The translations under genes and the position numbers were made by a program. Shown here one piece after another: positions 4,534 through 46,475 of a DNA stretch of 64,000 nucleotides. Location of the stretch: positions 14,126 through 78,125 of the forward strand of contig CAXTBC010000005.1 in NCBI GenBank assembly GCA_964242595.1, written 5' to 3'. Origin of the DNA: an uncultured Acetobacteraceae bacterium (GTDB lineage Bacteria; Pseudomonadota; Alphaproteobacteria; Acetobacterales; Acetobacteraceae). Position 1 is the first letter of the stretch. Each line of letters begins with the position of its first letter. Under the pieces are notes generated by a model. It did no database searches. It saw nothing but the letters and a program-made list of their open reading frames with translations, and was not told the DNA's origin.

Positions 4534-4539
4534 GCAGGC

Positions 4540-4596
4540 AGGAAGGAAGGCCTTCTTTTCTGAAGAAAAGAAGCAAAAGACTTTTGACTCCGCTGT
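4540..4596. repeat. Family A repeat, half copy
   Basis: AGGAAGGAAGGCCTTCTTTTCTGAAGAAAAGAAGCAAAAGACTTTTGACTCCGCTGT just after the DUF3108 stop. Confidence 0.9.
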
Positions 4597-8864: not shown

Positions 8865-8915
8865 AGGAAGGAAGGAAGGCCTTCTTTTTTGAAAAAAAGA
8901 AGCGAAAAACTTTTG
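8865..8915. repeat. Family A repeat, half copy
   Basis: AGGAAGGAAGGAAGGCCTTCTTTTTTGAAAAAAAGAAGCGAAAAACTTTTG. Confidence 0.9.
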
Positions 8916-9006
8916 AAATTCATATCCGACTGCACGTCTTGCGCGTGCGTCTGCAATAGGCGGCTGCGCCTGTGCTCTTCGTTCTTCGAACAGGTTTTGC
9001 CCGCCT

Positions 9007-9978: not shown

Positions 9979-10125
9979 GGACGGGAAAATGCGTCCTGCG
10001 ACGGCCCCCGGCAAGCCTGCGCGTGAGCTTTCGTGTGGTCCGCGCGCGGTGGCTTGCCAGGCACCGCGCCGCCGGCGGAAGATCGTTCCGCGGCCGGAAA
10101 AGCCGCATTAACCTGGGGTTTCGGC

Positions 10126-11280
10126 GTGAGCGCTGCCACCAACGACTGTCCCGCCGTGCCGCCGCAGGGCTACATCCCGGCGCTGGACGGCCTGCGCGCG
10201 GTGGCCATCCTGATGGTGGTGACCGCCCATGCCGGGCTGGAGCGGGTGGTGCCGGGCGCCTTTGGGGTAACGCTGTTCTTCTTCATCAGCGGCTACCTGA
10301 TTACCCGCCAGTTGCTGGCGGGCCTGGCCGCGCGCGGCCGCATCGGGCTGGCCGGCTTCTACCTGCGCCGCGTGCTGCGGCTGGCGCCGGCGGGCCTGGC
10401 CTACGTGGCACTCGCCGGGCTGGCCTACCTCGCGGCCGGAGGGTTCATCGGCGCGTCCGGCTGGCTGTCTGCGGTGTTCTACGGCGCCAATGTCTACGAT
10501 CTCTGGGCGGGCTACCGCTCCACGCTGCCCGGCGTGCGCCACCCGTTCAACATCCTGTGGTCGCTGGCCATCGAGGAGCATTTCTACTTCGTCTGGCCGC
10601 TGCTGCTGACGATGGTGTGGCGATGGCGGTTCCTGGCGGCCGGCTTGGTGGTTCTGTGCCTGGCGGTGCTGGCCTGGCGGGCTTGGCTGTTCGATCATTG
10701 TACCTGGGACTTCTCCGCCATCTGTGGCCGCCTTCAGGCCAACCCCGCCTGGCGTTACAACCGGCTGTACCAGGGCACTGACACGCGCATCGACAGCATC
10801 GCCTGGGGCGCGCTGTTGGCCGTGCTGGAACAGCGCCGGCCCGGCTGGGCGCGGGTGGCGACCTACGCCTGGACAGCCGGCGTGGTGCTGCTGGCGGCGA
10901 GCTTCGCCCTGCACGGCGAGTTCGCGCGCCAGGTTGTGCGCACGAGCGTGCAGGGCACCGCACTGCTGCTGGCGTTTCCCGCGCTGCTGTACCGGCCGAG
11001 CTTGGTGCAAAGCTGGCTGTCGCTGCCGCCGGCGCTGCTGGTGGGGCGGCTCAGCTACTCGCTTTATCTGTGGCACTGGGGGGCGTTCGCCGTGGCGGAC
11101 TGCGTGGCGGGGGCCGACCGGGTGCTGTGGTTGGGGGTGGGGCTGCCGTTGGCATTCGTGTGTGCTGGTCTGTCTTACTGGTGCGTCGAACAGCCTATGA
11201 TGGGACTACGCCGTCGGGCCGGCAGCGAAACGACTCAATGCGGAGAAGTACCGGCCCACTCAGCCGCAAGCGTGTCCTGA
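10126..11280 (+). CDS. Acyltransferase family 3 (OafA/YrhL-like) membrane protein
   Basis: YIPALDGLRAVA, FFFISGYLIT, FYLRRVLRL, WSLAIEEHFY, SYSLYLWH. Confidence 0.92.
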   Translation: MSAATNDCPAVPPQGYIPALDGLRAVAILMVVTAHAGLERVVPGAFGVTLFFFISGYLITRQLLAGLAARGRIGLAGFYLRRVLRLAPAGLAYVALAGLAYLAAGGFIGASGWLSAVFYGANVYDLWAGYRSTLPGVRHPFNILWSLAIEEHFYFVWPLLLTMVWRWRFLAAGLVVLCLAVLAWRAWLFDHCTWDFSAICGRLQANPAWRYNRLYQGTDTRIDSIAWGALLAVLEQRRPGWARVATYAWTAGVVLLAASFALHGEFARQVVRTSVQGTALLLAFPALLYRPSLVQSWLSLPPALLVGRLSYSLYLWHWGAFAVADCVAGADRVLWLGVGLPLAFVCAGLSYWCVEQPMMGLRRRAGSETTQCGEVPAHSAASVS

Positions 11281-12947
11281 CGTAGGCGAAGCCGGCGGAA
11301 ATCTAACGCTAGAAAGAGGTCTTCGAGGCTCGGTTCAGCCACTTGCTCGATCGGCAAGGTAGCGCGAGCTTCCTCGACAAACCGCGCCCGCAACGCAGGG
11401 CTTTCATTCTGGTAAGCCTCTCTCCACCAACTCAAGATCAGCGGCTTGGCCTGCGCAAGCGTCGTGCCCGTCACGATCTTTTCCCGTTTTTGACTGCGGT
11501 TGATGTTTGAGGTGGATGGAAGCAGATTCCAAAGATCACCGCATTGCCACGCTGACCAGGGTAGACAGTGATCTATGTCCAGCATGTCCGCTGACAACGA
11601 CCTACCAGACCAGACGCAAGTGACGGACTGCCCTTTAGCCAGACGCCTTTGCGCGAGATCGCGTACGAAGCCCGTATCGCGTTCCGGCTCCAACCAGCGC
11701 AGCGCGAGCAAGACCTCGTCCGCTGTTACGGACTTTCCTACCTTTTCGCCGTAATTCCTGGTCAAGCGAACCCATTCCGCAACAAGCATCGGCTCGATCC
11801 AGGCCGACATGCGTCGGAGAGCCTGCCATATCGAAAGCGGGACCCGGACTGTCCCGTACGTCCATAAGTAGTCCTGCTCCATGCACACGGCTGAACTGGT
11901 TGCGGGCATCCTGCCGTAGATTGTCTCGAACACAGGACGGTCGTCTGCAAACGTCAAGTGCCTGGCAGGCATGTCGGCGATCAAGCGGGCTGAGTCGGCA
12001 AGTGCCTTGCGCAATCCGGCTCCGAGCAGCCCGGTGAAGATGGCTCCTGGCCGTAAATCGGATGCAGCTACTTCGTTCAAGGACAAGAACGCATCGGTTA
12101 CAAAACCCATTCTGGAGCCGGGCCGTTGCGGAAGTCCACGTTGGATTAGTGGCTTGAACATCCTGATCCAGTAGAGCGCCACTAATCCAAGCGGAAGGTC
12201 CACGCCGCCCTGTGCCTCACGAGCCACATTCGCCGAAGCGTCCGCGATCCGGGCCAGGCAACGTATGAGCGCCAGCTTGTAGGTTGCTGACTTTTCCTGC
12301 CTTAGAATGACGCCACGCAGGAGCGGAAGCGCACCCGCGCCGTCATCCGGCAAATCCAATATCACGGTCTGCCACAGCACGTCCGGTCTTTCCTGCAGGT
12401 CTTCGGCATGACTGGTCGCCACGCGGAGCGCCAGACCAGTGTCCAAGCCGAGCCGCTCAATCTCGTGCAAACTGACGGGCCACATTGGCCTGTCAGCAGG
12501 TGCTGGCCCGTGACGTAGGGTGACAACCATACGACCTCCGGGCCTGAGTAACGTTGCCAGCTTGCGCATCGCGCGCGGCCGATCTTGCGGCGGAACGTGC
12601 ATCCATACGCCGCTCAGCCAGATGAGATCGAACTCCAAGCCGAGCTTGTGGACTGCCGGGAGGCTAGGAAGGTCATCGTCGATCCAGCGGATACGAGGCG
12701 AGGTGTGGCGTGCTGCGGCGTCGACGCGCATGGAAGCAGCCGGCTCTACGGCCACCACGTCCCAGTCGCGCTGAGCGAACCAGTTCGCATCGCGACCGCT
12801 TCCGGAACCAACATCCAGTAGAAGGCCAGCTTGCCCGGGAAGGAAGGGCAAGGCCACAGAGTGGACGTCTTCGAAGCCCATAGCTTCGTAGGCTGCTGCG
12901 AACTCGCGGAAGCCACGCTGATAGGGTTCAACAGTCTCCCAACTCAA
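11235..12947 (-). CDS. Class I SAM-dependent methyltransferase fused to an HNH endonuclease domain
   Basis: N-terminal LLDVGSGSGRDA SAM motif; central KSATYKLAL block; C-terminal DIDHCLPW...WNLLPSTSNINRSQK HNH/HNN motif; TTG start preceded by AGGA. Confidence 0.8.
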   Translation of the reverse strand: MSWETVEPYQRGFREFAAAYEAMGFEDVHSVALPFLPGQAGLLLDVGSGSGRDANWFAQRDWDVVAVEPAASMRVDAAARHTSPRIRWIDDDLPSLPAVHKLGLEFDLIWLSGVWMHVPPQDRPRAMRKLATLLRPGGRMVVTLRHGPAPADRPMWPVSLHEIERLGLDTGLALRVATSHAEDLQERPDVLWQTVILDLPDDGAGALPLLRGVILRQEKSATYKLALIRCLARIADASANVAREAQGGVDLPLGLVALYWIRMFKPLIQRGLPQRPGSRMGFVTDAFLSLNEVAASDLRPGAIFTGLLGAGLRKALADSARLIADMPARHLTFADDRPVFETIYGRMPATSSAVCMEQDYLWTYGTVRVPLSIWQALRRMSAWIEPMLVAEWVRLTRNYGEKVGKSVTADEVLLALRWLEPERDTGFVRDLAQRRLAKGQSVTCVWSGRSLSADMLDIDHCLPWSAWQCGDLWNLLPSTSNINRSQKREKIVTGTTLAQAKPLILSWWREAYQNESPALRARFVEEARATLPIEQVAEPSLEDLFLALDFRRLRLRQDTLAAEWAGTSPH

Positions 12948-13120
12948 CGCATCGTCCTAGCCGACCTTCAGAACTGTTATCTAGCTTGGCAGGTCCGCAA
13001 CGACCTTGCGAGATGTAAAGTAAGCTCAGCTCGAGTCTGGTTATGCTACGTTCTCCACCGGCTCAGGAGCAGACTTCATCACCACCAGACTAATACTAAC
13101 GGCCGTAAACTTTGACCTAT

Positions 13121-13255
13121 AGACAAGCATGGGGCTCTGCCCCAAACCCCGCTGGGGCCTCGAGGCCCCAGACCCCCATCTGTTTAGAGTCTAACGAACA
13201 GGTTCTAAGGACTTGTCCTTAGCGGGGTCCAGGGGCAGAGCCTTTGGCCTTCCTT
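13121..13255. repeat. Family B repeat, full (type-1 + type-2 halves)
   Basis: AAGCATGGGGCTCTGCCCCAAACCCCGCTGGGGCCTCGAGGCCCCAGACCCC ... CTAAGGACTTGTCCTTAGCGGGGTCCAGGGGCAGAGCC...GGCCTTCCTT. Confidence 0.92.
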
Positions 13256-13305
13256 CACAGGTCAACATTAAAGGCCGTTGGTATAAGCTGTCTGTAGACA
13301 GCTCG

Positions 13306-13899
13306 TTAAGGCGCCTTCGCCTCGTCCAACGCCAAATTGACCTCCAGCACGTTCACCCGCGCAGCGCCCACGAACCCGAGCGCCGGCGCCGCAACGTGCC
13401 GCGCCAGCACGGCGCGCACCGCGTCCTCGCTCATCGCGCGCGCCTTGGCCACGCGGGCCACCTGCAAGGCCGCGTTCTCCGGCGAGATGTCCGGGTCCAG
13501 GCCGGAGGCGGACGTGGTCACCATGTCGCCCGGCACGTTCGCCGTGCCCGCCTTCGCCACGTCGCCCGACACCCTGTCCAGCAGCGTCTTGGACGCCGGC
13601 GCCAAGTTGGAGGCGCCGGACTCGCTCGCGTCGTACGGCGTTGCCACCTGCTTTGAGGAGTCCTTCGGGTCTGCCCCCATCAGAGCGGACGGCCGGCCAT
13701 GGAAGTATTTGTCGGAGGTGAAGTTCTGCCCGATCAGCGCGGAGCCCACCGGCTTGCCGCCGCGCAGGATCAGGCTGCCGCCGGCCTGGATGGGAAACGC
13801 CAGGCTGCCCAGCCCCACGAAGCCCAGCGGGAACAGCAAGCCCGTCACCAGGGTAAACAATGCGATCATCACGATCGCCGGACGCAGTTGCGCAATCAT
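13306..13899 (-). CDS. kdpC: K+-transporting ATPase subunit C
   Basis: GSALIGQNF, YFHGRPSA, SGASNL, VTTSASGLDPDIS, RVNVLEVNLALD. Confidence 0.95.
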   Translation of the reverse strand: MIAQLRPAIVMIALFTLVTGLLFPLGFVGLGSLAFPIQAGGSLILRGGKPVGSALIGQNFTSDKYFHGRPSALMGADPKDSSKQVATPYDASESGASNLAPASKTLLDRVSGDVAKAGTANVPGDMVTTSASGLDPDISPENAALQVARVAKARAMSEDAVRAVLARHVAAPALGFVGAARVNVLEVNLALDEAKAP

Positions 13900-13911
13900 C
13901 TCGGCGGCTCC

Positions 13912-15942
13912 TCAGGCAAACACGTGCAGGGCGGTGAGCAGCATGTCGATCGCCTTGATGCCGACGAACGGCGCCACGATGCCGCCCAGCCCGTAGATCA
14001 GCAAGTTGCGCTGCAGCAGTGCGGCCGCCCCCACCGCGCGGAACTTCACTCCGCGCAGGGCCAGCGGCACCAGCACCACGATGATCAGCGCGTTGAAGAT
14101 GACGGCCGACATGATGGCGCTCTGCGGCGTGGAGAGGCGCATGATGTTCAGCGCGCCGAGTTGCGGATACGTCACCACGAAGATCGCCGGCAGGATGGCG
14201 AAGTATTTCGAGATGTCGTTGGCGATGCTGAACGTGGTGAGCGAGCCGCGGGTGATCAGCAGCTGCTTGCCGATCTCGACGATCTCGATCAGCTTGGTGG
14301 GGTCGCTGTCGAGGTCGACCATGTTGGCGGCCTCGCGTGCCGCCTGGGTGCCGGTCTGCATCGCCACGCCGACATCGGCCTGCGCCAGCGCCGGCGCGTC
14401 GTTGGTGCCGTCGCCGCACATCGCCACCAGCCTTCCCTCGGCCTGCGTCTTGCGGATGTAGTCCAGCTTGTCCTGCGGCGTGGCCTCGGCGAGGAAGTCG
14501 TCCACGCCGGCCTCGGTGGCGATGGCCGCCGCGGTCACGCGGTTGTCGCCGGTCACCATGATGGTGCGTATGCCCATGCGGCGCAATTCGGCGAAGCGGT
14601 CGCGTATGCCCGGCTTGACGATGTCCTTCAGCTCGACCACGCCGAGCAGCCGGCCATCCTGCAGCACCGCCAGCGGCGTGCTGCCGGCGCGGCTCACGCG
14701 CTCCACGCTTTGGGTGAACGCGGCGGGCGCGGGGCAGGTGCCAAGCTTGAGGATGCTGTCCACCGCGCCCTTGCGCCAGCTCCGTCCCCCGGCGTCCACG
14801 CCGGACACGCGGGTGTTGGCGGTGAACGGGATCACGTTGGCGTCGGCCGGCGCCTCCAGGTTGATGCCGTGCCTGTCGCGGGTGAAGGTGATGATGGAGC
14901 GGCCTTCCGGCGTGTCGTCGCCCAGGCTGGCATAGGAAGCGGCCTCGGCCAGGTCCCGCTCGCTCACGCCCGGCGCCGGGTACAGCCCGGCGGCCATGCG
15001 GTTGCCGAAGGTGATGGTGCCCGTCTTGTCCAGCAGCAGCGCGTCCACGTCGCCGGCCGCCTCCACCGCGCGCCCGCTGGTGGCCACCACGTTGAACCGG
15101 ATCAGCCTGTCCATGCCGGCGATGCCGATGGCCGAGAGCAGTCCGCCGATGGTGGTCGGGATCAGCGTCACCAGCAGGGCGGCCAGCACCGGGATCGCCA
15201 GCTTGGTGCTGGAGTAGCCGGCAAACCCCACGAGCGTGACCACGGCGATCAGGAAGATCACCGTGAGGCCCGCGAGCAGGATGTCCAGCGCGATCTCGTT
15301 GGGAGTCTTGCGGCGCTCGGCGCCCTCCACGAGCTTGATCATCCGGTCGATGAAGGTCTGCCCCGGATCGGCGGTGATGCGGATCACCAGCCAGTCGGAG
15401 ACCACCTGGGTGCCGCCGGTCACCGCCGATCGGTCGCCGCCGGCCTCTCGGATGACGGGCGCGGACTCGCCGGTGATGGCGGATTCGTTGACGCTGGCGA
15501 TGCCCTGCACGATCTCGCCGTCGGACGGGATCAGGTCGCCGGTCTCGCACAGCACCAGGTCGCCCGACTGCAGCGCGGTGGCCGGGGTGGGCGCTACCAG
15601 CGTGCGATCCCTGGGGTTGGCCATCAGCTTGGCCATCGTGTCGGTCCTCGCCCGCCGCAGGCTCTCGGCGCGCGCGCGTCCACGGCCCTCGGCGACCGCC
15701 TCGGCGAAGGTGGCGAACAGCACCGTCAGCCACAGCCACACCGCGACCGCGATGGCGAACGCGGCCGGCGTGCCGCGTATCAGCGCCTCGAGGCCGATGA
15801 AGGTGGTGAGCGCGGCGACCACTTCGGTGACGAAGATCACCGGGTTGCGCATCAGGCTCACCGGGTTGAGCTTGGCGAAGCTGTCGCCCACCGCGCGCAG
15901 GAGGATGGTGCGGTCGAACAGGGCTATCGTGTCGGCGGGCAT
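13912..15942 (-). CDS. kdpB: K+-transporting ATPase subunit B (P-type ATPase)
   Basis: [11 protein letters not shown] phosphorylation motif, [29 protein letters not shown]; ATG 15942 chosen. Confidence 0.97.
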
Positions 15943-15955
15943 GTTTTGAAATCCC

Positions 15956-16089
15956 AAGGAAGGAAGAGTTCTTTTTTGAAAAAAAGAACCAAAAAACTTT
16001 TGCGTAACGGTGGATGTTTCAGGCGGCACGCGCGCGCAAAGGGACAAAAGTTTTTTGCTTCTTTTTTCAAAAAAGAAGCGCTTGCTTTC
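15956..16089. repeat. Family A repeat, full, between kdpA and kdpB
   Basis: GTTCTTTTTTGAAAAAAAGAAC-CAAAAAACTTTT ... AAAAGTTTTTTGCTTCTTTTTTCAAAAAAGAAGCGCTTGCTTTC. Confidence 0.92.
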
Positions 16090-17799
16090 TTAGTAAGTGT
16101 GCCCCGCCCGCAGCGCGAAGTGATCCGCCATCGGCCCCAAAGCGTCGGCCGGCATGAACTGCAAGCCGCCCAGGATGATGATCACCCCGATGAGCAGCCC
16201 CACGAACAGTGGGCCCGTGGTGGGAAACGTGCCCGTGCTGGGCGGCAGCTTCGGCTTGGCGGCCAGCGAGCCGGCGATCGCCAGTACCGGCACCATGAAC
16301 GCGAAACGGCCGAAGATCATGGCGAAGGCCAGCCCGTAGTCGAGCAGCCGCGTGTCGGCCGTCAGCCCTGCCATCGCACTGCCGTTGTTCTCGGTGGCCG
16401 ACGACCAGGCGTACAGCATTTCCGAAAGGCCGTGCGGGCCGGACGCGCTGAGCGAGGACACGCCGTTCGGCAGCACCAGCGCCAGGCCGGCGCCGCCGAG
16501 GATGAACAGCGTCAGGATCAGCACGGCCAGCATCGCCAGCTTGATCTCCTTGGCCTGCACCTTCTTGCCCAGGTACTCCGGCGTGCGGCCGACCATCAGC
16601 CCGGCCACGAACACGCTGAGCAGGGCGAACACCACGATGGTGTAGAGGCCCGAGCCGACGCCGCCGGGCGTCACCTCGCCCAGCTGCATCAGGAACAGCG
16701 GCACCAGGCCGCCCAGCGGCGTGTAGCTGTCGGTGAAGCTGTCCACCGCACCGGTGGAGGTGCCGGTGGCGGACGTGTTGAACGCGCTGGACAGGGCCAC
16801 GCCGAAGCGGACGTCCTTGCCTTCCATGTTGCCCATCGCGGAACTCACGCCGGCATGGGTCAGCAGCGGGTTGCCGCCGGCTTCGGCCGCGTAGGTGCCG
16901 GCGATGGCCAGCGTCAGCAGGATGGCCATGGCGTAGAATAGCGAGCGGCCCTGCTTCTTCTCGCCCACCATGTGGCCGAGCATGATGGCCAGCGCGAACG
17001 GGATCACCAGCAGCAGCCAGTTCTCCAGCACGTTGGTCAGCGCGGACGGGTTCTCGAACGGATGGGCCGAGTTGGCGTTGAAGAAGCCGCCGCCGTTGGT
17101 GCCGAACTCCTTGATGGCTTCCTGGAACGCCACGGGCCCGAACGCGATGGTTTGCGATCCTCCCTCCAGCGGCGTGGCGGTGGCGTAGGCGCTCAGCGTT
17201 TCCGGCACGCCGGCGGCAAGCAGGATCACGCCGACCACGACGCACACGGGCAACAGCAGATATAGCGTGATCCGCGTGAGGTCGACGTAGAAGTTGCCGA
17301 GCGACGTCACCGCGCTGCCGGCGAACGCGCGCACCACGGCGACGGCGGCGGCGATGCCGGTGGCGGCACTGAGGAAGTTGTGCACCGTCAGCCCGAACAT
17401 CTGCGCACCGTAGCTGATCTGGCTTTCCGGCGTGTAGGCCTGCCAATTCGTGTTGGTAACGAAACTAGCCGCCGTGTTGAACGCCAGTCGCGGCGACATG
17501 GCGGCCACGTGCTGCGGGTTGAAGGGCAGCACGTCCTGCAGGCGCAGGATGGCGTAGAGCACCAGGAAGTGCAGCGCGTTCAGCACGATCAAGGCGAACA
17601 CGTAGTGCAGCCAGCCCATGCCGCGCCGCGGGTCCACGCCCGCCAGCGCGTAGAAGCCGCGCTCCACCGGGCCCAGCACCGGCGTGAGCCAGGTGCGGCC
17701 GCCGGAAAACAGCACCGCCATGTAACGTCCCAGCGGAAACGCGGCGGCGAACACCAGCGCCAGCACGAGCGCGATCTGCGCCCAGCCGATCAACGTCAT
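16090..17799 (-). CDS. kdpA: K+-transporting ATPase subunit A
   Basis: FNTAASFVTNTNWQ, GTNGGGFFNANSAHPFENP, GGVGSGLY, NNGSA selectivity-filter motifs. Confidence 0.97.
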   Translation of the reverse strand: MTLIGWAQIALVLALVFAAAFPLGRYMAVLFSGGRTWLTPVLGPVERGFYALAGVDPRRGMGWLHYVFALIVLNALHFLVLYAILRLQDVLPFNPQHVAAMSPRLAFNTAASFVTNTNWQAYTPESQISYGAQMFGLTVHNFLSAATGIAAAVAVVRAFAGSAVTSLGNFYVDLTRITLYLLLPVCVVVGVILLAAGVPETLSAYATATPLEGGSQTIAFGPVAFQEAIKEFGTNGGGFFNANSAHPFENPSALTNVLENWLLLVIPFALAIMLGHMVGEKKQGRSLFYAMAILLTLAIAGTYAAEAGGNPLLTHAGVSSAMGNMEGKDVRFGVALSSAFNTSATGTSTGAVDSFTDSYTPLGGLVPLFLMQLGEVTPGGVGSGLYTIVVFALLSVFVAGLMVGRTPEYLGKKVQAKEIKLAMLAVLILTLFILGGAGLALVLPNGVSSLSASGPHGLSEMLYAWSSATENNGSAMAGLTADTRLLDYGLAFAMIFGRFAFMVPVLAIAGSLAAKPKLPPSTGTFPTTGPLFVGLLIGVIIILGGLQFMPADALGPMADHFALRAGHTY

Positions 17800-19671: not shown

Positions 19672-20202
19672 ATGGCCAAGCGTTGGTATGTCGTCCACGT
19701 CTATTCCGGCTTCGAGAAGAAGATCGCCTCGGCCATCAAGGAGCAGGCCGAGCAGAAGGGCCTGGCCGACCACATCGACGAGGTGCTGGTGCCCTCCGAG
19801 GAGGTGGTCGAGGTGCGCCGCGGCCAGAAGATCAACGCCGAGCGCAAGTTCTTTCCCGGCTACGTGCTGGTGAAGATGGAACTCACCGACGACGCCTGGC
19901 ACCTCATCAAAAACACCCCGAAGGTCACCGGCTTCCTGGGCACCAAGCTGCGCCCCAGCCCGATCAGCGAGGCCGAGGCCGACCGGATCATGAAGCAGGC
20001 GCAGGATGGCGTGGACCATCCCCGCCGCAGCGTCATCTTCGAGATCGGCGAGCAGGTGCGCGTGGCCGACGGCCCGTTCACCAGCTTCAACGGCACGGTG
20101 GAGGAGATCGACGAGGAGAAGGGACGGCTCAAGGTGTCGGTCTCGATCTTCGGGCGGTCCACGCCTGTGGAGCTCGAGTACGGGCAGGTCGAGAAGGTTT
20201 AA
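19672..20202 (+). CDS. nusG: Transcription termination/antitermination factor NusG
   Basis: [26 protein letters not shown] motif [29 protein letters not shown]. Confidence 0.98.
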
Positions 20203-20327
20203 GGCAAGCAGTCCTTTTTGGAAAAAAAGGACCAAAAAACTTTTGCTCCCTGTCGGGTGGTTCAGGGCAAGCACGCGACAGCGGAGTCAAAGTTTTTTGG
20301 TTCGTTTTTCAAAAAAGAACTGCTTTC
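20203..20327. repeat. Family A repeat, full, filling the gap between convergent nusG and the amidotransferase gene
   Basis: GGCAAGCAGTCCTTTTTGGAAAAAAAGGACCAAAAAACTTTTGCTCCCTGTCGGGTG ... CGACAGCGGAGTCAAAGTTTTTTGGTTCGTTTTTCAAAAAAGAACTGCTTTC. Confidence 0.92.
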
Positions 20328-22085
20328 TTATCCTAGCGCATCCAGCACCCCGCCTTCGGCCGCCAACCCCTCCACATGCGCCCGGTGCCAAAGCGCGTAG
20401 AACAGCAGCACCCAGGCCGCCATCCCCTCCCGCTTGCCGTCGGCGGCGCGGAACAGCGCCTCCACCCGCGCCGGCTCGGCTATTTCGGCCACGCCGGCCT
20501 GGCGCGCCACCAGGCGGCCCAGCCTGGCGCCATCCTGCGCGATCCAGGCACCCACCGGCACGGTGAAGCCCTGCTTGGGCGCGAACGGCCGCGCCGCCGG
20601 CAGCGCACCCTCCAGCCAGCGCCGCAGCAGGTATTTGCCCTGGCCGCGCCGCACCTTCAGCGCGTCCGGCAGCCGGAAGGCGGCTGCGGCCACGCCGGGA
20701 TCCAGCAGCGGCGTGCGGCCCTCCACGGCGTGCGCCATCAGGCAGCGGTCCAGCTTGCCCAGCAGGTCGTGCGGCAGCCAGTCTGCCGTATCGGTCGCCT
20801 GCGCGGCCTGCAGCCGGGTGCGCCCACCGGCGCCGGCGACCGCCTCGGCCGCCGCCAGCCCGTCCCGCCACCCGGCGGGCCTGGCGCGCAGCACGTTCAG
20901 GCCGTCGAAGGTGCCGCGTCCGCGCATCACCCGACCGCCCTGCCATAGTGGTCGCATGGCGCTGCGATAGCGGCCGTAGCCGCCGAACACCTCGTCGCCG
21001 CCCTCGCCGGACAGCACCACCTTCACCTGCTGGCGGGCGTGGCGGGCCAGGAACCACGTTGGGATGATCGCGTAGTCCGCCGCCGGGTCGTCCATCGCCG
21101 CCACGATCTCCGGCAAGTGGCGCCAGGCCATCTCGCGCGTGACGTCGATCGTCGCGTGCACCGCGCCCACCGCCTTGGCCAGAGCGGCGGCCTGCGCCCG
21201 TTCGTCGGCCGCCTCGGCCACGTCGAACCCGGCGGTGAAGGCCAGTACCGGCCGCGTGGCCAGGCGCGCCATGGTGGCCAGGATGGCGGCGCTGTCGATG
21301 CCGCCGGACAGGAACAGGCCGTAGGGCACGTCGCTGCGCTGGTGCAGGTCCACGCTCTGCATCAGCGCGTGGTCAAGCCGGTCCAGCGCCGCGGCCTCGG
21401 CGATCTCCTCGGGCGGGCCGTCCGGCAGCGCGGCCACCCGGCTGCGCGCCACCAGGTGGCCGTCAGCGATGCGCAGCGTCTCGCCAGGCAGCACGCGGAA
21501 GATGCCGGGGAAGATCGTCTCCGCCCCGGTGGTGAACTGCATCTGCAGCAGCTCGCCGCGTGCTCCGGGCCGCACCGCGCGCGTGCCCAGTCCTGCGCCC
21601 AGCAGCGCCTGCGGTTCGGAGGCGAACGCGATCCCGCCCGCCACCTGCGTCCAGTATAGCGGCTTGATGCCGAACGGGTCGCGCGTCAGCGTCAGGGTGC
21701 GGCCGGCGCGGTCGTAGATGGCGATGGCGAACATGCCGCGCAGGTGCCGCGCGTAGCCGTCAGGAGCGGCGGCGTAGAGGTGCAACGGCGGTTCGCAGTC
21801 GCTGGCGGTGGCGAACGCAATGCCCGGCATCTCCGCCCACAGCTCGCGGTAGTTGTACACCTCGCCGTTGGCCACCAAGCTGGCGGGGCCCGCCTGCAGC
21901 GGCTGGGCGCCGCCTGGCAGGTCGATGATGGCGAGCCGCGCATGCACCAGCGCGGCCTGGCCCAGCACCACATGGCCGGCGCCGTCCGGTCCGCGATGCG
22001 CGATGCCGCCGGCCAGCGCCGCCAGCACGGCCGGGTCGGGCGGCGGCGCATCCTGGGCGAGGGCGATGCCGGCGATGCCGCACAT
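20328..22085 (-). CDS. asnB: Asparagine synthase (glutamine-hydrolysing)-family amidotransferase, probably glycan-modifying
   Basis: N-terminal MCGIAG (Cys2), HRGPDG, RDPFGIKPLY, LSGGIDS, LSGEGGDE, DRCLMAHAVEGRTPLLD. Confidence 0.92.
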   Translation of the reverse strand: MCGIAGIALAQDAPPPDPAVLAALAGGIAHRGPDGAGHVVLGQAALVHARLAIIDLPGGAQPLQAGPASLVANGEVYNYRELWAEMPGIAFATASDCEPPLHLYAAAPDGYARHLRGMFAIAIYDRAGRTLTLTRDPFGIKPLYWTQVAGGIAFASEPQALLGAGLGTRAVRPGARGELLQMQFTTGAETIFPGIFRVLPGETLRIADGHLVARSRVAALPDGPPEEIAEAAALDRLDHALMQSVDLHQRSDVPYGLFLSGGIDSAAILATMARLATRPVLAFTAGFDVAEAADERAQAAALAKAVGAVHATIDVTREMAWRHLPEIVAAMDDPAADYAIIPTWFLARHARQQVKVVLSGEGGDEVFGGYGRYRSAMRPLWQGGRVMRGRGTFDGLNVLRARPAGWRDGLAAAEAVAGAGGRTRLQAAQATDTADWLPHDLLGKLDRCLMAHAVEGRTPLLDPGVAAAAFRLPDALKVRRGQGKYLLRRWLEGALPAARPFAPKQGFTVPVGAWIAQDGARLGRLVARQAGVAEIAEPARVEALFRAADGKREGMAAWVLLFYALWHRAHVEGLAAEGGVLDALG

Positions 22086-23104: not shown

Positions 23105-23116
23105 GTTGGACAGCCA

Positions 23117-23270
23117 AAGGCAAGGCAAGCGGTTCTTTTTTGAAAAAAAGAACCAAAAAACTTTTGTCTGTTTTGGGCGCGCGTCGGTGAGACGTGGTGT
23201 TTCAGCCGTCCGCGACAGCGCTCACAAAAGCTTTTTGCTTCTTTTTCTCGAAAAAGAAGGCCTTGCTTTC
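23117..23270. repeat. Family A repeat, full, inside the GT9-GT4 operon
   Basis: GCAAGCGGTTCTTTTTTGAAAAAAAGAACCAAAAAACTTTT ... AAAAGCTTTTTGCTTCTTTTTCTCGAAAAAGAAGGCCTTGCTTTC. Confidence 0.92.
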
Positions 23271-24233
23271 TCATGCGTGCAACGCCGCCGGCAGCCGGCC
23301 GTCGCGCACCAGCAGGTCGAACGCCGCCCACAGCGCCGCTTCTACCGGCAGGCGGTCCATCGCCGCGCGCCCGGGCTGCCCGTCCGCCAGCACCACAGCC
23401 GTGCAGCGGCCGGCAGGCGCGTATTCGCTGGCGGGGGTGGGTCCGAACAGCCCCAAAGTCGGCGTCCCGGCCGAGGCGGCCAGGTGCATCAGCCCCGAAT
23501 CGTTGCCAACGAACAGCACGCAGCGCGCCAGGCACGCCGCCGCCTGCGGCAGCGTCAGCAGGCCCACCAGGTCCAGCGAGCCGGACAGCTCGGCTACCAC
23601 CCGGGCGGCGGCCGCGCGTTCGGCCACGCCGGGACCGCCGAACACAGCAAAGCGCGCGCCGGGCAGCCGCAGCGCCAGCCCTGCCGCCAGGGCCACGAAG
23701 CGCTCGGCCGGCCACATCTTCGCCGGCCAGTTGGCGGTGGGGCCCAGCCCGATCACCGGCCCGCCGGCCGGCAGCAGCATGTCGGCGCGCGCGCGGTCGG
23801 CCGGCGCCGTCCAGGCGACCGGCAGCGGCGCCTCGTCCAGCCCCAGCGCGCCGGCGATGTGCCCCAGCCGGTGGCCGGCACGCCGCCCGCCACGCATGAT
23901 CGCCCGCCGCCGCGCCAGCAGCGTCAGACTCAGCGCCGAGCCGCGCAGATCAACCACCAGGTCCCAGCGGCGCCGCGCCACCTGCCACCACAGCGCCGCC
24001 CAGTGCAGGTCGGCCGGGCGCTTCTCCACCACAATCACTCGGTCCAGCGCGGGGAAGCGCGCGAACAGCCCGGCGGCCACCGGTCCGCAGGCGATGGTGA
24101 AGCGCGCGTCCGGGTAGGTGCGGGCCAGATGGTCCAGCACGCCGGTGGAGAGCACGGCATCGCCCAGCCGCGTGGCGGTGACGAACAGGATGCGCCGCGG
24201 CGGCGGTCCGGCCGGAGGCAGCTTTCCGCTCAG
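23271..24233 (-). CDS. Glycosyltransferase family 9 (heptosyltransferase-like); start uncertain, possibly CTG at 24233
   Basis: RILFVTATRLGDAVLS N-terminal motif lies upstream of the first canonical start (GTG 24155); KMWPAERF, FVGNDSGLMHLAA. Confidence 0.85.
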   Translation of the reverse strand: MSGKLPPAGPPPRRILFVTATRLGDAVLSTGVLDHLARTYPDARFTIACGPVAAGLFARFPALDRVIVVEKRPADLHWAALWWQVARRRWDLVVDLRGSALSLTLLARRRAIMRGGRRAGHRLGHIAGALGLDEAPLPVAWTAPADRARADMLLPAGGPVIGLGPTANWPAKMWPAERFVALAAGLALRLPGARFAVFGGPGVAERAAAARVVAELSGSLDLVGLLTLPQAAACLARCVLFVGNDSGLMHLAASAGTPTLGLFGPTPASEYAPAGRCTAVVLADGQPGRAAMDRLPVEAALWAAFDLLVRDGRLPAALHA

Positions 24234-28861: not shown

Positions 28862-28994
28862 CAGGAAGGCCAGGGGCTCTGCCCCTGGACCCCGCTAAGG
28901 ACAAGTCCTTAGAGGCTGTTCGTAGAAGATCCTTAATGGACGGGGGTCTGGGGCCTCGAGGCCCCAGCGGGGTTTGGGGCAGAGCCCCACGCTT
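28862..28994. repeat. Family B repeat, full
   Basis: CAGGAAGGCCAGGGGCTCTGCCCCTGGACCCCGCTAAGGACAAGTCCTTAG ... GGGGCCTCGAGGCCCCAGCGGGGTTTGGGGCAGAGCCCC. Confidence 0.92.
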
Positions 28995-29152
28995 ATCTGC
29001 AGGTCAAGCTTTCCGGGCGTTGGTATAAGGTGTCTGCTCGACACAATCCTTGATGGCCGGCGAGCACGTGTCCGTTGCGTTGCGTGTCAAACCACGCTGC
29101 TGACCCGCCAGGAAGGCCAGAGTTCTTTCGCCAGCCTTTGAGGGGCTTCACC

Positions 29153-31943: not shown

Positions 31944-32909
31944 GTGATACGCAGCATTCTTCGCCTGTTCCGACGCGACGGCAGAGTGGCGGTAGAGCCT
32001 GAGCCCGAAGCTGAGCGTGCGCCGGAACCGGAGCCGCAGGCCGAAGCGGCCGCTCCGCTTGCGGACGCCGGAGAGGCGTCCGACTACCTGCCGGATCGGT
32101 TCGCGCTGCTGGCGGTGATCAACAAGGTCGGCTCCGTGGAGCACTACTTCCACTTCGTGCTGGGCTACGTGGCCCCGCTCCTGCTGCGTGAGGCCGTGTC
32201 TCCGCCCGGGCTGACCTGCCTGGTCCGCTCTTGCGGCCCGCTGGACCGTATGTTTGCCGAACTCGGCCTGGCGGACATCCGGCAAGTTCCCAAGGCGGAC
32301 TGGCGCGACCGGCGCGAGAGCGGCCGCTACAAGGTCCATAGCATATACGGCCAGGACCGGCCGGAAGACTACGATCCTGTCGCCCTGGCCCGGCTGCGCG
32401 TGCTGATGCTGGAGCGCCTGGCCGTGATGCCGCCGGACCGTCCTGCGCAGGTGCTGCTCGTCAACCGCGGCCGCTCGCCGGACGCCTACCAGGCCACGGA
32501 GGTCGAAAACCCTACCTCGGCGAATTTGCGCCGGTCGGTGCCCAACATGGCCGAGGTCGCCGCGGCACTGACGCAGGCCGGCACCGCGTGCCGGCTGGTG
32601 GAGCTGGAGGAGACCACGTTGCGCGCGCAGGTTGTGCTGTTCGCCGCCACATCCACGCTGGTGGCCCAGCACGGTGCCGCCCTGGTGAACATGGTGTGGA
32701 TGGCGCCCGGCGGGCTGGTCGTGGAGATCCTGCCGGAGGTTGGGCGCGCAGCACGCATCTTCCCCATGCTGGCGGCGGCGTGCGGGCATCGCTACGTCAG
32801 CGTGGCGCAACGCAACCTACACGCGCCTGCCGATGTTGCGGCTGTGGTGGACGCGGTTGGACCTGCAGGCAAGCATGGGGCTCTGCCCCAAACCCCGCTG
32901 GGGCCTTGA
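31944..32909 (+). CDS. Glycosyltransferase family 61 (DUF563); last codons and stop lie in a family B repeat
   Basis: YFHFVLGY, RRSVPN, QVVLFAATSTLVAQHGAALVN, VVEILP; C-terminus [12 protein letters not shown] is repeat-encoded. Confidence 0.82.
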   Translation: MIRSILRLFRRDGRVAVEPEPEAERAPEPEPQAEAAAPLADAGEASDYLPDRFALLAVINKVGSVEHYFHFVLGYVAPLLLREAVSPPGLTCLVRSCGPLDRMFAELGLADIRQVPKADWRDRRESGRYKVHSIYGQDRPEDYDPVALARLRVLMLERLAVMPPDRPAQVLLVNRGRSPDAYQATEVENPTSANLRRSVPNMAEVAAALTQAGTACRLVELEETTLRAQVVLFAATSTLVAQHGAALVNMVWMAPGGLVVEILPEVGRAARIFPMLAAACGHRYVSVAQRNLHAPADVAAVVDAVGPAGKHGALPQTPLGP

Positions 32910-32981
32910 GGCCCCAGACCCCCCATCTGTTAGGCCTCTCTTATGAACGGCTTTTGAGGACTTGTCCTTAGCGGGGTCCAG
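32867..32981. repeat. Family B repeat, type-2 end truncated; overlaps the 3' end of the GT61 gene
   Basis: AGGCAAGCATGGGGCTCTGCCCCAAACCCCGCTGGGGCCTTGAGGCCCCAGACCCC ... GAGGACTTGTCCTTAGCGGGGTCCAG. Confidence 0.9.
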
Positions 32982-33472: not shown

Positions 33473-34333
33473 TCAGGCCGTCCCACCCTCGGGATTGCCG
33501 AATAGCTGGGTGAGGCTCACCTGGCCGCTGCCCGGCCGCAACGCTTGCGGCTGGGAAGCGGCGGGTGCCCACCCGGTCAGCATGGCCAGGCGCAGCCGGA
33601 CGGTACTGCGTCCGTCGCGTACGGGAAGGCCGGCCAACGCGGCCGCCATCAGGTTGCGCGGTGGTGTGCGCCTGTCGCGCATCGCCACGGCGTTGGTCTC
33701 GCCGGCGGCCCGCAGGTCGCGCGGCAGGTCGAGCGGGTCGGCGTAGAGCAGCTCGATCTCGTCGGCATCGGCCACCGGCAGGGCGAAGCCGGCGCGCTGT
33801 AGCAGCGCCGCGCAATCCCGCAAGTCAGGGAATGGGGAGATGCGCGGCGCCGCACCCCCCGTCAGCAGCGACTCCGTCTGCGTGAGCGCGGCGCGCCAAG
33901 CATCCAACGTGCCCAAAGCCGGCAGGCTGGCCAGCAGCAGCCCGTCCGGCCGCAACGCCAAGCGGAGCTGGATCAGCGCGCCCGGTAAGTCGTTCACCCA
34001 GTGCAGCGCGAGGTTGGCCACCACCAAGTCGAACGCGCCGTGGGCGAAGGGCAGGGCCTCCTCGTCGCCGGCCACCGCCGGGCCGCCGCAGAGCGCGGCC
34101 ATGCGGGGCGATAGGTCCAGGCTGACGCAGCCGATGCCGCGGGCGCGCAGCTTCGGCGCCACCACGCCCCGCCCGCCCACATCCAGCGCCTGGGTGAAGC
34201 GGTGCGTGGTGTCGTCCAGCCGATCCAGCAGCCGGTCTGCCACCTCGGCCAGGATCGGCTGCACGCGAGCGACCAGGGGGGCGGCGCGCGCCCTGTGCAG
34301 GCGTACGGCGCGGCGGTCGAAGATGTCGATCAT
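33473..34333 (-). CDS. SAM-dependent methyltransferase (BioC/NDUFAF5-like)
   Basis: IFDRRAV, GDEEALPF, LALHWVNDLPGAL, PRISPF, LLQRAGFALPVAD; divergent from comF. Confidence 0.88.
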   Translation of the reverse strand: MIDIFDRRAVRLHRARAAPLVARVQPILAEVADRLLDRLDDTTHRFTQALDVGGRGVVAPKLRARGIGCVSLDLSPRMAALCGGPAVAGDEEALPFAHGAFDLVVANLALHWVNDLPGALIQLRLALRPDGLLLASLPALGTLDAWRAALTQTESLLTGGAAPRISPFPDLRDCAALLQRAGFALPVADADEIELLYADPLDLPRDLRAAGETNAVAMRDRRTPPRNLMAAALAGLPVRDGRSTVRLRLAMLTGWAPAASQPQALRPGSGQVSLTQLFGNPEGGTA

Positions 34334-34336
34334 GAA

Positions 34337-34469
34337 GGTAGCAAGCAGTTCTTTTTCGGGAAAAAGAACCAGAAAGCTTTTGCTTCCTGTCGGGTGTTGC
34401 AGAGGTATGCGCGCCCAGTGAGTAAAAGTTTTTTGCTTCTTTTTTTCAAAAAAGAAGTCCTTCCTTGCT
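34337..34469. repeat. Family A repeat, full; occupies almost the whole divergent intergenic region
   Basis: GCAAGCAGTTCTTTTTCGGGAAAAAGAACC ... AAAAGTTTTTTGCTTCTTTTTTTCAAAAAAGAAGTCCTTCCTTGC. Confidence 0.92.
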
Positions 34470-36423: not shown

Positions 36424-36435
36424 GTGTCCGTCCAA

Positions 36436-36570
36436 AGAAAGGCCAGGGCTCTGCCCCTGGACCCCGCTAAGGACAAGTCCTTAGAACCCATTCGAAAGAG
36501 GTCCTTAACGAATGGGGGTCTGGGGCCTCGAGGCCCCAGCGGGGTTTGGGGCAGAGCCCCATGCTTGCCT
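36436..36570. repeat. Family B repeat, full
   Basis: AAAGGCCAGGGCTCTGCCCCTGGACCCCGCTAAGGACAAGTCCTTAG ... GGGGCCTCGAGGCCCCAGCGGGGTTTGGGGCAGAGCCCCATGCTTGCCT. Confidence 0.92.
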
Positions 36571-36662
36571 CTGGGTCGAGGCTTCCAGCCGTCGTGGAGC
36601 ATCCCATTTCGCGCAACGCGCCCAACCTGTATCCTGCGTTGGATTAACCGCAGGAGTAGGCC

Positions 36663-37926: not shown

Positions 37927-39104
37927 TGTTCGCAACCTTCGTCCAGCAGCTCCGCACGGCAGGCCTCCCCGTCTCCATCACCGAGTACCTCTCGCTGATG
38001 GGTGCAATGAAAGCCAACGTCGCCGCCTACAACATCGAGGACTTCTACTTTCTCGCGCGCGCCACGCTGGTGAAGGACGAACGCCACCTGGACCGCTTCG
38101 ACCGCGTGTTCGCCACCGTGTTCGAGGGCCTCGAACACCCGCCGGGCGACCCGGCCACCGACATTTCCGACGAGTGGCTTCGCCGCATCGCCGAGAAGAA
38201 CCTCAGCCCCGAGGAGATGGCCGAGATCGAAGCGATGGGTGGGTTCGAGAAGTTGATGGACACTCTGCGCCAGCGCCTGGAGGAACAGAAGGAACGACAC
38301 CAGGGCGGCAACAAGTGGATCGGCACCGGCGGCACGTCGCCGTTCGGCGCCTACGGCTACAACCCCGAAGGCGTGCGCATCGGCCAGAAGGAGTCCCGCC
38401 ACCGCCGCGCAGTGAAGGTATGGGACAAGCGCGAGTTCCGCGACCTGGACGGCGACACCGAACTCGGCACGCGCAACATGAAGATTGCCCTGCGCCGGCT
38501 GCGCCGCTTCGCCCGCCAGGGTGCCGCCACCGAACTGGACCTGCCCGGCACCATCCACGCCACGGCCAGCAACGCCGGCAGCCTCGACCTGAAGATGGTA
38601 CCCGAGCGGCACAACGCGGTGAAGATCCTGCTGCTGCTCGACATCGGCGGCTCGATGGACGATTTCGTCCGCACCTCGCAGGAATTGTTCTCGGCCGTGC
38701 GCTCGGAGTTCAAGCACCTCGAGCATTTCTACTTCCACAACTGCGTCTACGAGCGCGTGTGGCGCGAGAACCGCCGGCGCGACGAGACGTCGCTGTCCAC
38801 GTGGGACCTGCTGCGCACCTACGGGCCGGACTACAAGCTGATCTTCGTGGGCGACGCGACGATGAGCCCCTACGAAGTGATCCAGCCGGGCGGTAGCGTG
38901 GAACACTGGAACGAGGAAGCCGGCCGCGTATGGATCGAGCGCCTGACAGGGCATTTCCGCAGCACGGCCTGGCTTAATCCGGCGTCGGAGGAGTATTGGC
39001 GGTTCACGCACTCCACGGTGATCCTGCGCGACCTGGTGGCGCAACGGATGTTTCCGTTGACGCTGACGGGGTTGGACGACATGACGCGCGAACTTTCGAG
39101 GTAG
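37926..39104 (+). CDS. VWA-domain protein (MoxR partner)
   Basis: MIDAS-like LLDIGGSM, VKDERHLDRFD, HQGGNKWIGTGGTSPFG, FVGDATMSPYE. Confidence 0.9.
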   Translation: MFATFVQQLRTAGLPVSITEYLSLMGAMKANVAAYNIEDFYFLARATLVKDERHLDRFDRVFATVFEGLEHPPGDPATDISDEWLRRIAEKNLSPEEMAEIEAMGGFEKLMDTLRQRLEEQKERHQGGNKWIGTGGTSPFGAYGYNPEGVRIGQKESRHRRAVKVWDKREFRDLDGDTELGTRNMKIALRRLRRFARQGAATELDLPGTIHATASNAGSLDLKMVPERHNAVKILLLLDIGGSMDDFVRTSQELFSAVRSEFKHLEHFYFHNCVYERVWRENRRRDETSLSTWDLLRTYGPDYKLIFVGDATMSPYEVIQPGGSVEHWNEEAGRVWIERLTGHFRSTAWLNPASEEYWRFTHSTVILRDLVAQRMFPLTLTGLDDMTRELSR

Positions 39105-39238
39105 GCAAGGCAAGGCCTTCTTTTCTGAAGAAAAGAAGCAAAAGACTCTGACTCCGCTGTCGTGCCTCCATCCAGCCGGCACCCGACAGGAAGTAAAAGT
39201 TTTTTGGTACTTTTCTTTCAAAAAAGAACTGCTTTCTT
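39105..39238. repeat. Family A repeat, full
   Basis: GCAAGGCAAGGCCTTCTTTTCTGAAGAAAAGAAGC ... CACCCGACAGGAAGTAAAAGTTTTTTGGTACTTTTCTTTCAAAAAAGAACTGCTTTC. Confidence 0.92.
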
Positions 39239-39261
39239 TTCGTTCAGGCTAGGGAACTCCT

Positions 39262-43112: not shown

Positions 43113-43248
43113 GGGAAGGCCAGGGGCTCTGCCCCTGGACTCCGCTAAGGACAAGTCCCTAGAACCTGTTCGTTAGGGACTTTAAACGGGTGGGGGTCTG
43201 GGGCCTCCAGGCCCCAGCGGGGTTTGGGGCAGAGCCCCATGCTTTGCC
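43113..43248. repeat. Family B repeat, full
   Basis: GGGAAGGCCAGGGGCTCTGCCCCTGGACTCCGCTAAGGACAAGTCCCTAG ... GGGGCCTCCAGGCCCCAGCGGGGTTTGGGGCAGAGCCCCATGCTT. Confidence 0.92.
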
Positions 43249-43299
43249 CGGCCGCCTCCGCCCTTCCGCCCGCCCCCAACTCTGCCCTATAGCCACACG

Positions 43300-44243: not shown

Positions 44244-44377
44244 AGGAAGCAAGCAGTTCTTTTTTGAAAAAAAGAACCAAAAAACTTTTGCTCACTGGCC
44301 GCGACGGTTGAAACAGGCGCGCCTGACAATCAAAAGTTTTTTGCTTCTTTTTTTCAAAAAAGAAGGCCTTCCTTCCT
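44244..44377. repeat. Family A repeat, full, inside the his operon
   Basis: GCAAGCAGTTCTTTTTTGAAAAAAAGAACC ... AAAAGTTTTTTGCTTCTTTTTTTCAAAAAAGAAGGCCTTCCTTCCT, ending just before the hisH ATG. Confidence 0.93.
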
Positions 44378-46387: not shown

Positions 46388-46475
46388 TGCGGAGCGGTGC
46401 GCTTTCGATTATGGCCGCCTCTGGTGCTGTGCCGTATAAGGCTGCCTGTCTGTAACCCTTAGGCCGGAGCACCAC

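Follow-up and report, generated by a model that had tools for sequence, protein, structure and literature searches.

The window analysed here is a 64,000-nucleotide stretch of contig CAXTBC010000005.1 (GenBank assembly GCA_964242595.1) from an uncultured Acetobacteraceae bacterium; all positions refer to this whole stretch unless another contig is named. It carries, on the minus strand between kdpC (the end of the potassium-pump operon) and a convergent acyltransferase gene, a single gene whose product joins an S-adenosylmethionine (SAM)-dependent methyltransferase, a middle region and a C-terminal HNH nuclease. A preliminary description of this DNA had proposed it as a candidate one-gene defence system.

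The open reading frame (ORF) of 570 amino acids (aa) at 11235..12947 is confirmed by the ORF list and its translation, and starts with TTG. The same start is found at the identical position in a sister lineage (P0002, 90% identity; contig L116), and alignments with homologues span 98-100% of the protein. The public gene call for this locus (P0003, window 11235-12530, 431 aa) begins at an internal ATG (M140) and for this reason drops the methyltransferase domain; the record would show an HNH protein only. All motifs quoted in the preliminary description are present: LDVGSGSGRDA at aa 44-54, KSATYKLAL at aa 219-227 and DIDH...WNLL...NRSQK at aa 457-487. The architecture that it proposed (methyltransferase, central block and C-terminal HNH) is upheld by the Pfam domain map and by a full-length AlphaFold2 model, which was built from 62 sequences and is divided into three parts (predicted local distance difference test, pLDDT, 88; predicted template modelling score, pTM, 0.82). 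The features of the locus are collected in Table 1.

Table 1. The fusion gene, its parts and its immediate surroundings (window coordinates)
Feature	Position	Strand	Evidence
Methyltransferase / middle domain / HNH fusion gene	11235..12947	-	ORF list; full-length homologues 62-90% identical; dN/dS 0.08 versus sister copy
AGGA Shine-Dalgarno sequence, 7 nt upstream of TTG (12945-12947)	12955..12958	-	Direct sequence reading
Class I SAM-dependent methyltransferase domain, small-molecule type, aa 1-198	12354..12947	-	Pfam, AlphaFold2 (pLDDT ~90), Foldseek
SAM-binding motif I LDVGSGSGRDA, aa 44-54	12786..12818	-	62-sequence alignment
Middle region, aa 199-440, with K219...Y223-K224 motif	11628..12353	-	AlphaFold2; conserved in fused and stand-alone branches
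HNH_4 (Cas9-type) beta-beta-alpha-Me core, aa 444-490, D459 H460 N474 N483 K487	11478..11618	-	Pfam PF13395, alignments
C-terminal helical extension, aa 491-570	11238..11477	-	AlphaFold2 helices 494-558; R522/F523 invariant across superfamily
Inserted window-specific segment relative to congener G011, replacing ~72 bp	11227..13322		blastn
Overlap of acyltransferase and fusion gene 3' ends, 46 bp	11235..11280		ORF coordinates; same in sister contig
Flanking acyltransferase, native	10033..11280	+	72% identical to G011 orthologue; Pfam Acyl_transf_3 in sister copy
Flanking kdpC, last gene of kdpABC, native	13306..13899	-	52-82% identical (mostly 71-82%) in 12 of 12 congeners checked
Dispersed GC-rich intergenic repeat ('family B')	13090..13255		At least 10 copies in the window

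The N-terminal domain matches the Pfam models Methyltransf_25, 11, 12 and 23 at aa 44-142 (E 1e-14, above the cutoffs), and the TPMT model also scores. It has a Rossmann-like fold, a glycine-rich motif I and an acidic residue (E68) after strand 2, which place it among the class I SAM methyltransferases, and Foldseek superimposes it on solved enzymes of this class (3e23, 3h2b, TPMT and TehB; TMt 0.68-0.75). A sequence search of the PDB returned small-molecule methyltransferases only. The top 50 PDB fold matches of the full model are small-molecule or RNA methyltransferases (cg3271, RPA2492, TPMT, TehB, UbiG and halide methyltransferases); DNA methyltransferases are not represented. No NCBIfam model scores above its cutoff, the weak likeness being confined to CpaM, UbiG, BioC and TehB, and no DNA-methylase model was matched in the Pfam, NCBIfam or PADLOC scans of the protein. 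No (D/N/S)PP(Y/F/W) or PCQ motif IV occurs in the protein; the sequence that follows strand 4 is LSGVWMHVPPQD, the usual pattern of Methyltransf_11-type enzymes. The earlier conclusion that the N-terminal domain is of the small-molecule type, drawn from the lack of DPPY/NPPY and PC motifs, thus agrees with Pfam, NCBIfam and the fold comparison.

At the other end of the protein, Pfam HNH_4 (PF13395) is matched at aa 444-490 with 24.2 bits (cutoff 22), and the D-H...N...N set of this family is intact. The HNH part is modelled as a beta-beta-alpha core (456-486) followed by three helices. Between the two enzymatic domains, the middle region (about 240 aa) is modelled as a helix-helix-beta-hairpin-helix unit (206-269), followed by an alpha/beta part with a long helix (371-402). 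A second model, restricted to aa 199-570, has a pLDDT of 89. With this model Foldseek finds only HNH domains, nearly all from Cas9 and all weak (E of at least 0.036), the isolated GeoCas9 HNH reaching a Foldseek probability of up to 0.99, and a fold search of BFVD gives generic phage HNH proteins only. For the middle region there is no fold match in the PDB or BFVD and no Pfam hit, and a sequence-profile search of the PDB with the C-terminal module gave no match. The middle region is thus modelled with confidence but is without a recognisable structural relative.

All three parts are functional and under strong purifying selection, as judged from the sequence comparisons. In the 62-sequence alignment L44, G47, G49, G51, R52 and E68 never vary and D45 is retained in at least 90% of the sequences; among 35 closer homologues the motif I residues and E68 are all invariant. 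In the nuclease, D459, H460, N474 and N483 show no exchange in any of the 62 fused or 13 stand-alone sequences (the stand-alone form is described below), and K487 is likewise invariant across both families; the 35 closer homologues agree at all five positions. Comparison with the sister copy gives dN 0.05, dS 0.66 and dN/dS 0.08, and the ratio is similarly low in each part (methyltransferase 0.086, middle region 0.083, HNH and C-terminus 0.063). The flanking genes have a similar dS and a higher dN/dS (0.12-0.27).

The gene occupies a segment that is absent from the closest congener without it (G011). Homology to G011 stops at 11226/11227 and restarts at 13322/13323 (in blastn, window 10170-11226 corresponds to L026 3609-2556 and window 13323-14500 to L026 2483-1305). 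The segment is about 2.1 kb long and its left edge lies 8 bp past the stop codon of the gene. In G011, kdpC and the convergent acyltransferase gene are separated by only about 25 bp. This empty site supports the proposal, made in the preliminary description, that the gene was inserted later. The overlap with the convergent acyltransferase gene that was also reported there is correct by coordinates, and arises because the acyltransferase frame now runs into the inserted foreign DNA. The sister lineage has the same site and the same overlap. The gene was also said to be less GC-rich than its neighbours, and this is so: its GC content is 0.58-0.63 compared with about 0.70 in the flanks, and its GC content at third codon positions (GC3) is 0.66 compared with 0.88±0.04 for 46 genes of the window.

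The composition of the gene differs between the two lineages. The sister copy (L116 1056-2768) has a GC3 of 0.83, compared with 0.66 here, despite the 90% identity of the proteins. At third positions, 126 differences are A or T here and G or C there and 32 are the reverse, an asymmetry that the flanking genes do not have. Either the two lineages have approached the host composition at very different rates or one of the alleles has been replaced.

One sign of insertion that had been put forward does not hold. The 'family B' repeat upstream of the gene is real, but the sister contig L116 has no copy of it between kdpC and the gene; the repeat therefore came later and is no part of the insertion event. 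The same absence indicates that this element has recently been mobile. It has the core GGGGTCTGGGGCCTCGAGGCCCCAGCGGGGTTTGGGGCAGAGCCCCATGCTTG, is about 65-165 nt long and is found in both orientations (13090-13255, 28863-29029, 32857-32981, 36434-36592, 43114-43270, 59231-59303, 61848-61927 and 62032-62098). Within the window-specific segment, just past the kdpC stop codon, there is also a perfect hairpin (AGCTGTCT-ACA-GACAGCT, 13283-13301), which the sister contig lacks. It may be a terminator, although the consensus scan of the locus for promoters and terminators gave no match.

The C-terminal 370 aa also exist as a separate protein family of about 380 aa (530 hits), found in Deinococcus, Hymenobacter, Chloroflexi, cyanobacteria (including Nostoc) and actinobacteria. 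Stand-alone and fused forms align over the entire module with 19-24% identity, and K219, K224, L227, R229, W260, P266, G301, W374, W392, R423 and R429 are invariant in both, together with the HNH site. The C-terminal 370 aa are thus an ancient autonomous nuclease unit, composed of a conserved basic helical N-terminal part and a Cas9-type HNH. As a stand-alone gene it lives in defence or mobile islands across several phyla: all five contexts examined are defence or mobile DNA, with neighbours that include GmrSD, DUF1156-DUF3780-DUF499, PLDc_2, REase-ARP, DUF262, NucS, integrases and transposases. PADLOC gives either no hit or a weak one (PDC-M01B) for the stand-alone nuclease itself.

Small ORFs are found next to some of these stand-alone genes. 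On plasmid pRadio3 of Deinococcus radiophilus, an ORF of 84 aa just upstream (L030 5726-5980) matches the 'sunset domain' model NF051437 (E 2.8e-18). ORFs of 65-79 aa precede the nuclease in Nostoc and in a metagenome-assembled genome (MAG), and these have no family match.

In Alphaproteobacteria and a few other groups, the nuclease unit is fused to one specific methyltransferase subfamily of the small-molecule type. The members of this subfamily are about 195 aa long, and paralogues outside the fusion are 37-43% identical to the N-terminal domain. The two that were aligned have the same substrate-side motifs (W[IL]DDxLPxL, L[ST][GA]VWxH and [ST]LRxGP...R). In Azospirillum the methyltransferase is a lone gene. 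In the Escherichia coli phage phi458 it is encoded by Orf3, which forms an overlapping two-gene cassette with a membrane protein (Orf2) and adjoins an integrase (L122 2336-3519). On two differently organised Rhizobium plasmids, membrane protein and methyltransferase form a single fused gene beside DGQHR_dnd_1/DndB and dnd genes (L032 5551-6570; L124 6581-7582), and the membrane segments are homologous to Orf2 of phi458 (pairwise E 3e-11 and 1e-10). The paralogues of Streptomyces and Azospirillum have no link to dnd genes. One module that is combined with a membrane module in some proteins and with a nuclease in others would, going by defence systems in general, be a control module whose effectors can be swapped. 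The cassette of methyltransferase and membrane protein, the latter carrying the motif LNQLMWQIP, is an undescribed module in its own right.

The fusion itself is scattered. Among 24 congeners, six have a full-length copy (59-69% identity) and about 15 have none; a diverged, a partial and a frameshifted copy are found in one congener each. Those that carry the gene do so elsewhere than at the kdpC locus, in non-syntenic places. A second clean case of presence and absence is provided by G006 and G004: two genes separated by 550 bp in G004 flank a gap of 2.2 kb in G006, and this gap holds the gene. The family comprises more than 2,066 protein hits. The species representatives with a relative number at least 177; most are from Acetobacteraceae, Sphingomonadaceae, Methylobacterium, Microvirga and Brevundimonas, and a few are MAGs of gamma- and betaproteobacteria. 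Plasmid-borne copies occur in Azospirillum, Sphingobium, Roseomonas, Sinorhizobium and Pseudoalteromonas. No full fusion was found in 50,697 phage records.

To describe the neighbourhood of the fused gene, genes were called in 80 loci and their 1,172 products clustered. No neighbour family is present in more than 12 of the 80 loci, in agreement with the preliminary description of the gene as standing alone, and 43 of the 56 loci with full flanks represent distinct contexts. Some fused copies adjoin McrC (McrBC), DUF3578, VapBC, IS21, HNH genes, PemK, TacA/TacT, an integrase or MobA. None of the 80 loci has a dnd or DGQHR gene less than 10 kb from the fused gene. PADLOC was applied to 150 near neighbours (within three genes on either side), where it found HNH (five), ThsB (two), ShosA, PsyrA, PD-T4-1 and LmuB, and to 150 far neighbours (at least six genes away), where it found a CBASS cyclase and effector, a type I methyltransferase and RecD.

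A recurrent partner does occur in one subclade with 44-50% identity. At six loci a gene of about 305 aa lies directly upstream on the same strand (with a 3-bp overlap in three of them), and about four further loci have a diverged HNH_2 gene nearby. The partner has Pfam HNH_2 at aa 196-250 and an N-terminal domain without a family assignment. Its C-terminal half matches NF045808, 'phosphorothioated DNA-binding restriction endonuclease' (E 5.5e-22), a match that falls short of the cutoff and does not extend into the reader half of the model. Two 306-aa proteins of one alphaproteobacterial genome (G168 C7:22834-23217 and C3:613-996; L128 and L129) also match only the HNH half of NF045808. These proteins and the subclade partner point to a family of HNH_2 enzymes whose N-terminal reader domain is a different one, without a family assignment.

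Our reading of the gene, which we hold tentatively, is that it was acquired horizontally and encodes a self-contained conflict nuclease, of a defence or an addiction type, under the control of a SAM-binding domain. Foreign origin and mobility are supported by the empty site in G011, the GC3 value, the G006/G004 pair, the presence of a full-length copy in only six of 24 congeners, the 43 distinct contexts among 56 and the plasmid-borne copies. The reading further draws on the constraint in all three parts, on the autonomous nuclease unit in defence or mobile DNA, on a methyltransferase that is not of the DNA type and whose subfamily has a membrane module as its other partner, and on those fused copies that are surrounded by defence genes. 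The methyltransferase domain would serve as a control module that binds SAM together with a ligand or substrate, perhaps methylating the latter, and that licenses or restrains the HNH nuclease through the middle domain. The nuclease would then cut DNA, either that of an invader or, in an abortive mode, any DNA. We infer that the enzyme is not a self-marking DNA methylase. The first interpretation of this DNA therefore stands as far as it describes a solitary, later-inserted fusion of a non-DNA-type methyltransferase with an HNH domain, and this fusion is absent from defence libraries; its defence role, for which the evidence from genomic context is circumstantial, and the gating of the nuclease by SAM are presumptive.

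Several observations weigh against a conflict role. Other fused copies, many of them in Acetobacteraceae, lie among ordinary genes (for example, beside recA, or beside an ABC transporter with overlapping stop and start codons in a synteny shared by five Falsiroseomonas species), and this synteny looks more like that of a long-term resident than of a fast-turnover defence gene. Many Acetobacteraceae copies have a host-like GC3. The near and far PADLOC tallies, obtained without a random control, are similar. No described defence system is matched, the only PADLOC hit being a generic one to mad2. For the control function in particular, the invariant SAM-binding residues cannot separate sensing from catalysis, and the conserved motifs beyond the SAM pocket suggest a real substrate.

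Restriction-modification in a single chain, similar to types IIG and IIC, is one alternative. The middle domain would read the sites at which the enzyme methylates the DNA of its host, and the HNH would cut unmodified DNA. Both activities lie here in one chain whose parts are equally constrained, and the gene is an isolated unit of gain and loss between conserved flanks at two loci, as restriction-modification genes are known to be. In addition, the subclade partner, a putative modification-dependent HNH_2 enzyme, recalls the pairings of complementary restriction functions seen in defence islands. We nevertheless find this reading rather unlikely in view of the missing motif IV, the exclusively small-molecule families in Pfam and NCBIfam and the top 50 folds without a DNA methyltransferase. 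Nor is a methyltransferase gene adjacent to the stand-alone nuclease in the five contexts seen; the nearest candidate, a DUF1156 gene for a predicted DNA methylase, is in Deinococcus wulumuqiensis, where some 3.7 kb and a change of strand separate it from the nuclease. Pairing of the methyltransferase paralogues with a membrane protein makes no sense for a DNA-marking enzyme, and this alternative partner is one indirect argument for a control module over DNA self-methylation. The ordinary contexts and host-like GC3 of many Acetobacteraceae copies, the Falsiroseomonas synteny, the strong purifying selection and the lack of a defence-library match would also suit an enzyme with an accessory housekeeping role in the metabolism of nucleic acids or small molecules and no part in conflict, such as a nuclease for repair or processing that is coupled to methylation. 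Such an enzyme would hardly be absent from about 15 of 24 congeners and located at different loci in the others, inserted cleanly and recently here, and found on plasmids and beside McrBC, toxin-antitoxin and IS genes, while its stand-alone nuclease relative lies in defence or mobile islands in all five contexts. We therefore consider this decidedly unlikely.

HNH is a classic fold of homing endonucleases, and a selfish nuclease whose gene spreads when empty alleles or related sites are cut and then repaired, the methyltransferase being a passenger or a means of self-protection, would explain single-gene insertions without integrase or transposase that end about 8 bp after the stop codon, the second clean insertion or deletion and the distinct contexts of most loci. 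However, the protein is far larger than free-standing homing HNH enzymes, no full-length copy occurs in the phage records, and the sister lineage retains the same site with a flank-like dS, so that the gene is stationary in that lineage. Neither conserved sequences at the termini nor duplications of a target site were noted, although no systematic search for them was made. Taken together, we give homing only a slim chance. A role linked to phosphorothioate DNA, in which the enzyme would act on DNA with a sulfur-containing backbone and its TPMT/TehB-like domain would methylate or sense sulfur, is very improbable. It is suggested by the scores with TPMT and the resemblance to TehB (both methyltransferases of the S/Se/Te type), by the paralogues near DGQHR_dnd_1/DndB and dnd genes on the two Rhizobium plasmids and by the NF045808 match of the HNH half of the subclade partner. 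It is also suggested by the only congener with dndC, G013, in which the fusion is frameshifted, although this is a single case. It is opposed by the lack of a sulfur-binding domain in the protein (PF26340, Foldseek and hhalign; see below), by the 80 fused loci without dnd or DGQHR, by the paralogues that are not dnd-linked and by the partner's match, which stays under the cutoff and leaves out the reader half.

The G013 case (G013:C39:1278-2808 and G013:C54:2592-3893) can be described further. A diverged copy of the fusion (41-45% identity) is split there into two frames. Among the congeners dndC is above the cutoff only in this genome, which presumably phosphorothioates its DNA, and it is absent from the genome studied here.

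The tentative reading as a SAM-controlled conflict nuclease can be taken one step further, to a form that we regard as unlikely. In this form, the small-molecule-type methyltransferase fold may act as a novel kind of sensor of infection whose effectors can be exchanged. It would respond either to the state of the SAM pool, which phage enzymes that degrade SAM could deplete, or to a small molecule made or modified by the phage, and would switch on the Cas9-type HNH through a previously unseen fold of about 240 aa. In prophages and beside dnd clusters, a membrane effector would be used instead.

A non-DNA methyltransferase fold, a confidently modelled domain without structural relative and a Cas9-type HNH, which are combined here, are not known to work together. 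If the gene serves defence, the system would be compact, with one gene only and a principle of control linked to SAM; if it is a restriction-modification enzyme, a non-canonical methyltransferase fold would be able to mark DNA. In either case thousands of genes could be re-annotated. The family is large (over 2,000 sequences, and for the nuclease module some 1,200 clusters at 50% identity), and the only database label for the fused members listed is 'SAM-dependent methyltransferase'.

The window also contains a second type of dispersed repeat, an A/T-rich, hairpin-forming intergenic sequence with the core AAAAGTTTTTTGCTTCTTTTTTTCAAAAAAGAAG. It has at least 11 copies in an otherwise 70% GC genome, often as inverted pairs at gene ends (247-298, 4536-4587, 8865-8916, 15952-16090, 20195-20333, 23116-23271, 34332-34469, 39101-39241, 44240-44377, 46321-46402 and 55405-55534).

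We found no published description of the methyltransferase-HNH architecture in the literature searched. The only match in PADLOC-DB v2 is to mad2 (E 5.7e-14), and it covers the methyltransferase fold alone. The mad profile hidden Markov models were built from HHpred alignments against the PDB with a 50% probability cutoff (bioRxiv 10.1101/2023.03.30.534895), so that the mad2 model is generic by construction. MADS is an eight-gene operon (mad1-mad8) whose other components are not present here, where no operon exists and the flanking genes are kdpC and an acyltransferase. Membership of MADS is thus ruled out.

The type IV enzymes ScoMcrA and SprMcrA are similar in placing a DNA-reader-like helical domain N-terminal to an HNH nuclease. 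Moreover, in both cases a basic residue leads a hydrophobic helix and an aromatic-Pro motif follows about 42-47 residues on. The defining residues of the sulfur-binding domain are given in PMC6224610, and the domain is equated with a winged helix in PMC10853773. The kinship of the middle region with this domain that the motif order suggested is rejected, since Pfam, Foldseek and hhalign are all negative. PF26340 has no hit in the protein at E<=1 and NF045808 has none; no ScoMcrA-type protein is among the Foldseek PDB matches listed; and hhalign of a 160-sequence module profile against 108 genuine members gives a probability of 0.3%. Genuine ScoMcrA/SprMcrA members have HNH_2 (PF13391) in place of HNH_4 and are without a methyltransferase. 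A relative of their HNH half is the operon partner found in one fused subclade.

The stand-alone 'HNH endonuclease domain-containing protein' family of about 380 aa is homologous over the C-terminal 370 aa; it lacks the methyltransferase and has no described function. With the HNH domains of Cas9 and IscB (HNH_4) the protein shares the catalytic pattern DxDH...N...N...K, and its best fold matches are Cas9 HNH domains, but the fold scores are weak, as given above, and there is no RuvC domain, RNA guide or CRISPR context. CxxC zinc-site pairs, which occur in many HNH families, are not seen in its HNH. The single-chain restriction-modification enzymes of types IIG and IIC (for example, MmeI, BpuSI and Eco57I) resemble it in having a methyltransferase and a nuclease in one chain with an intervening helical region and in being solitary units of gain and loss. 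They differ from the present protein, in which no recognisable target-recognition domain was identified and the methyltransferase is of the small-molecule type without motif IV. The nuclease here is a Cas9-type HNH compared with PD-(D/E)XK, and the order of the parts is methyltransferase first and nuclease last.

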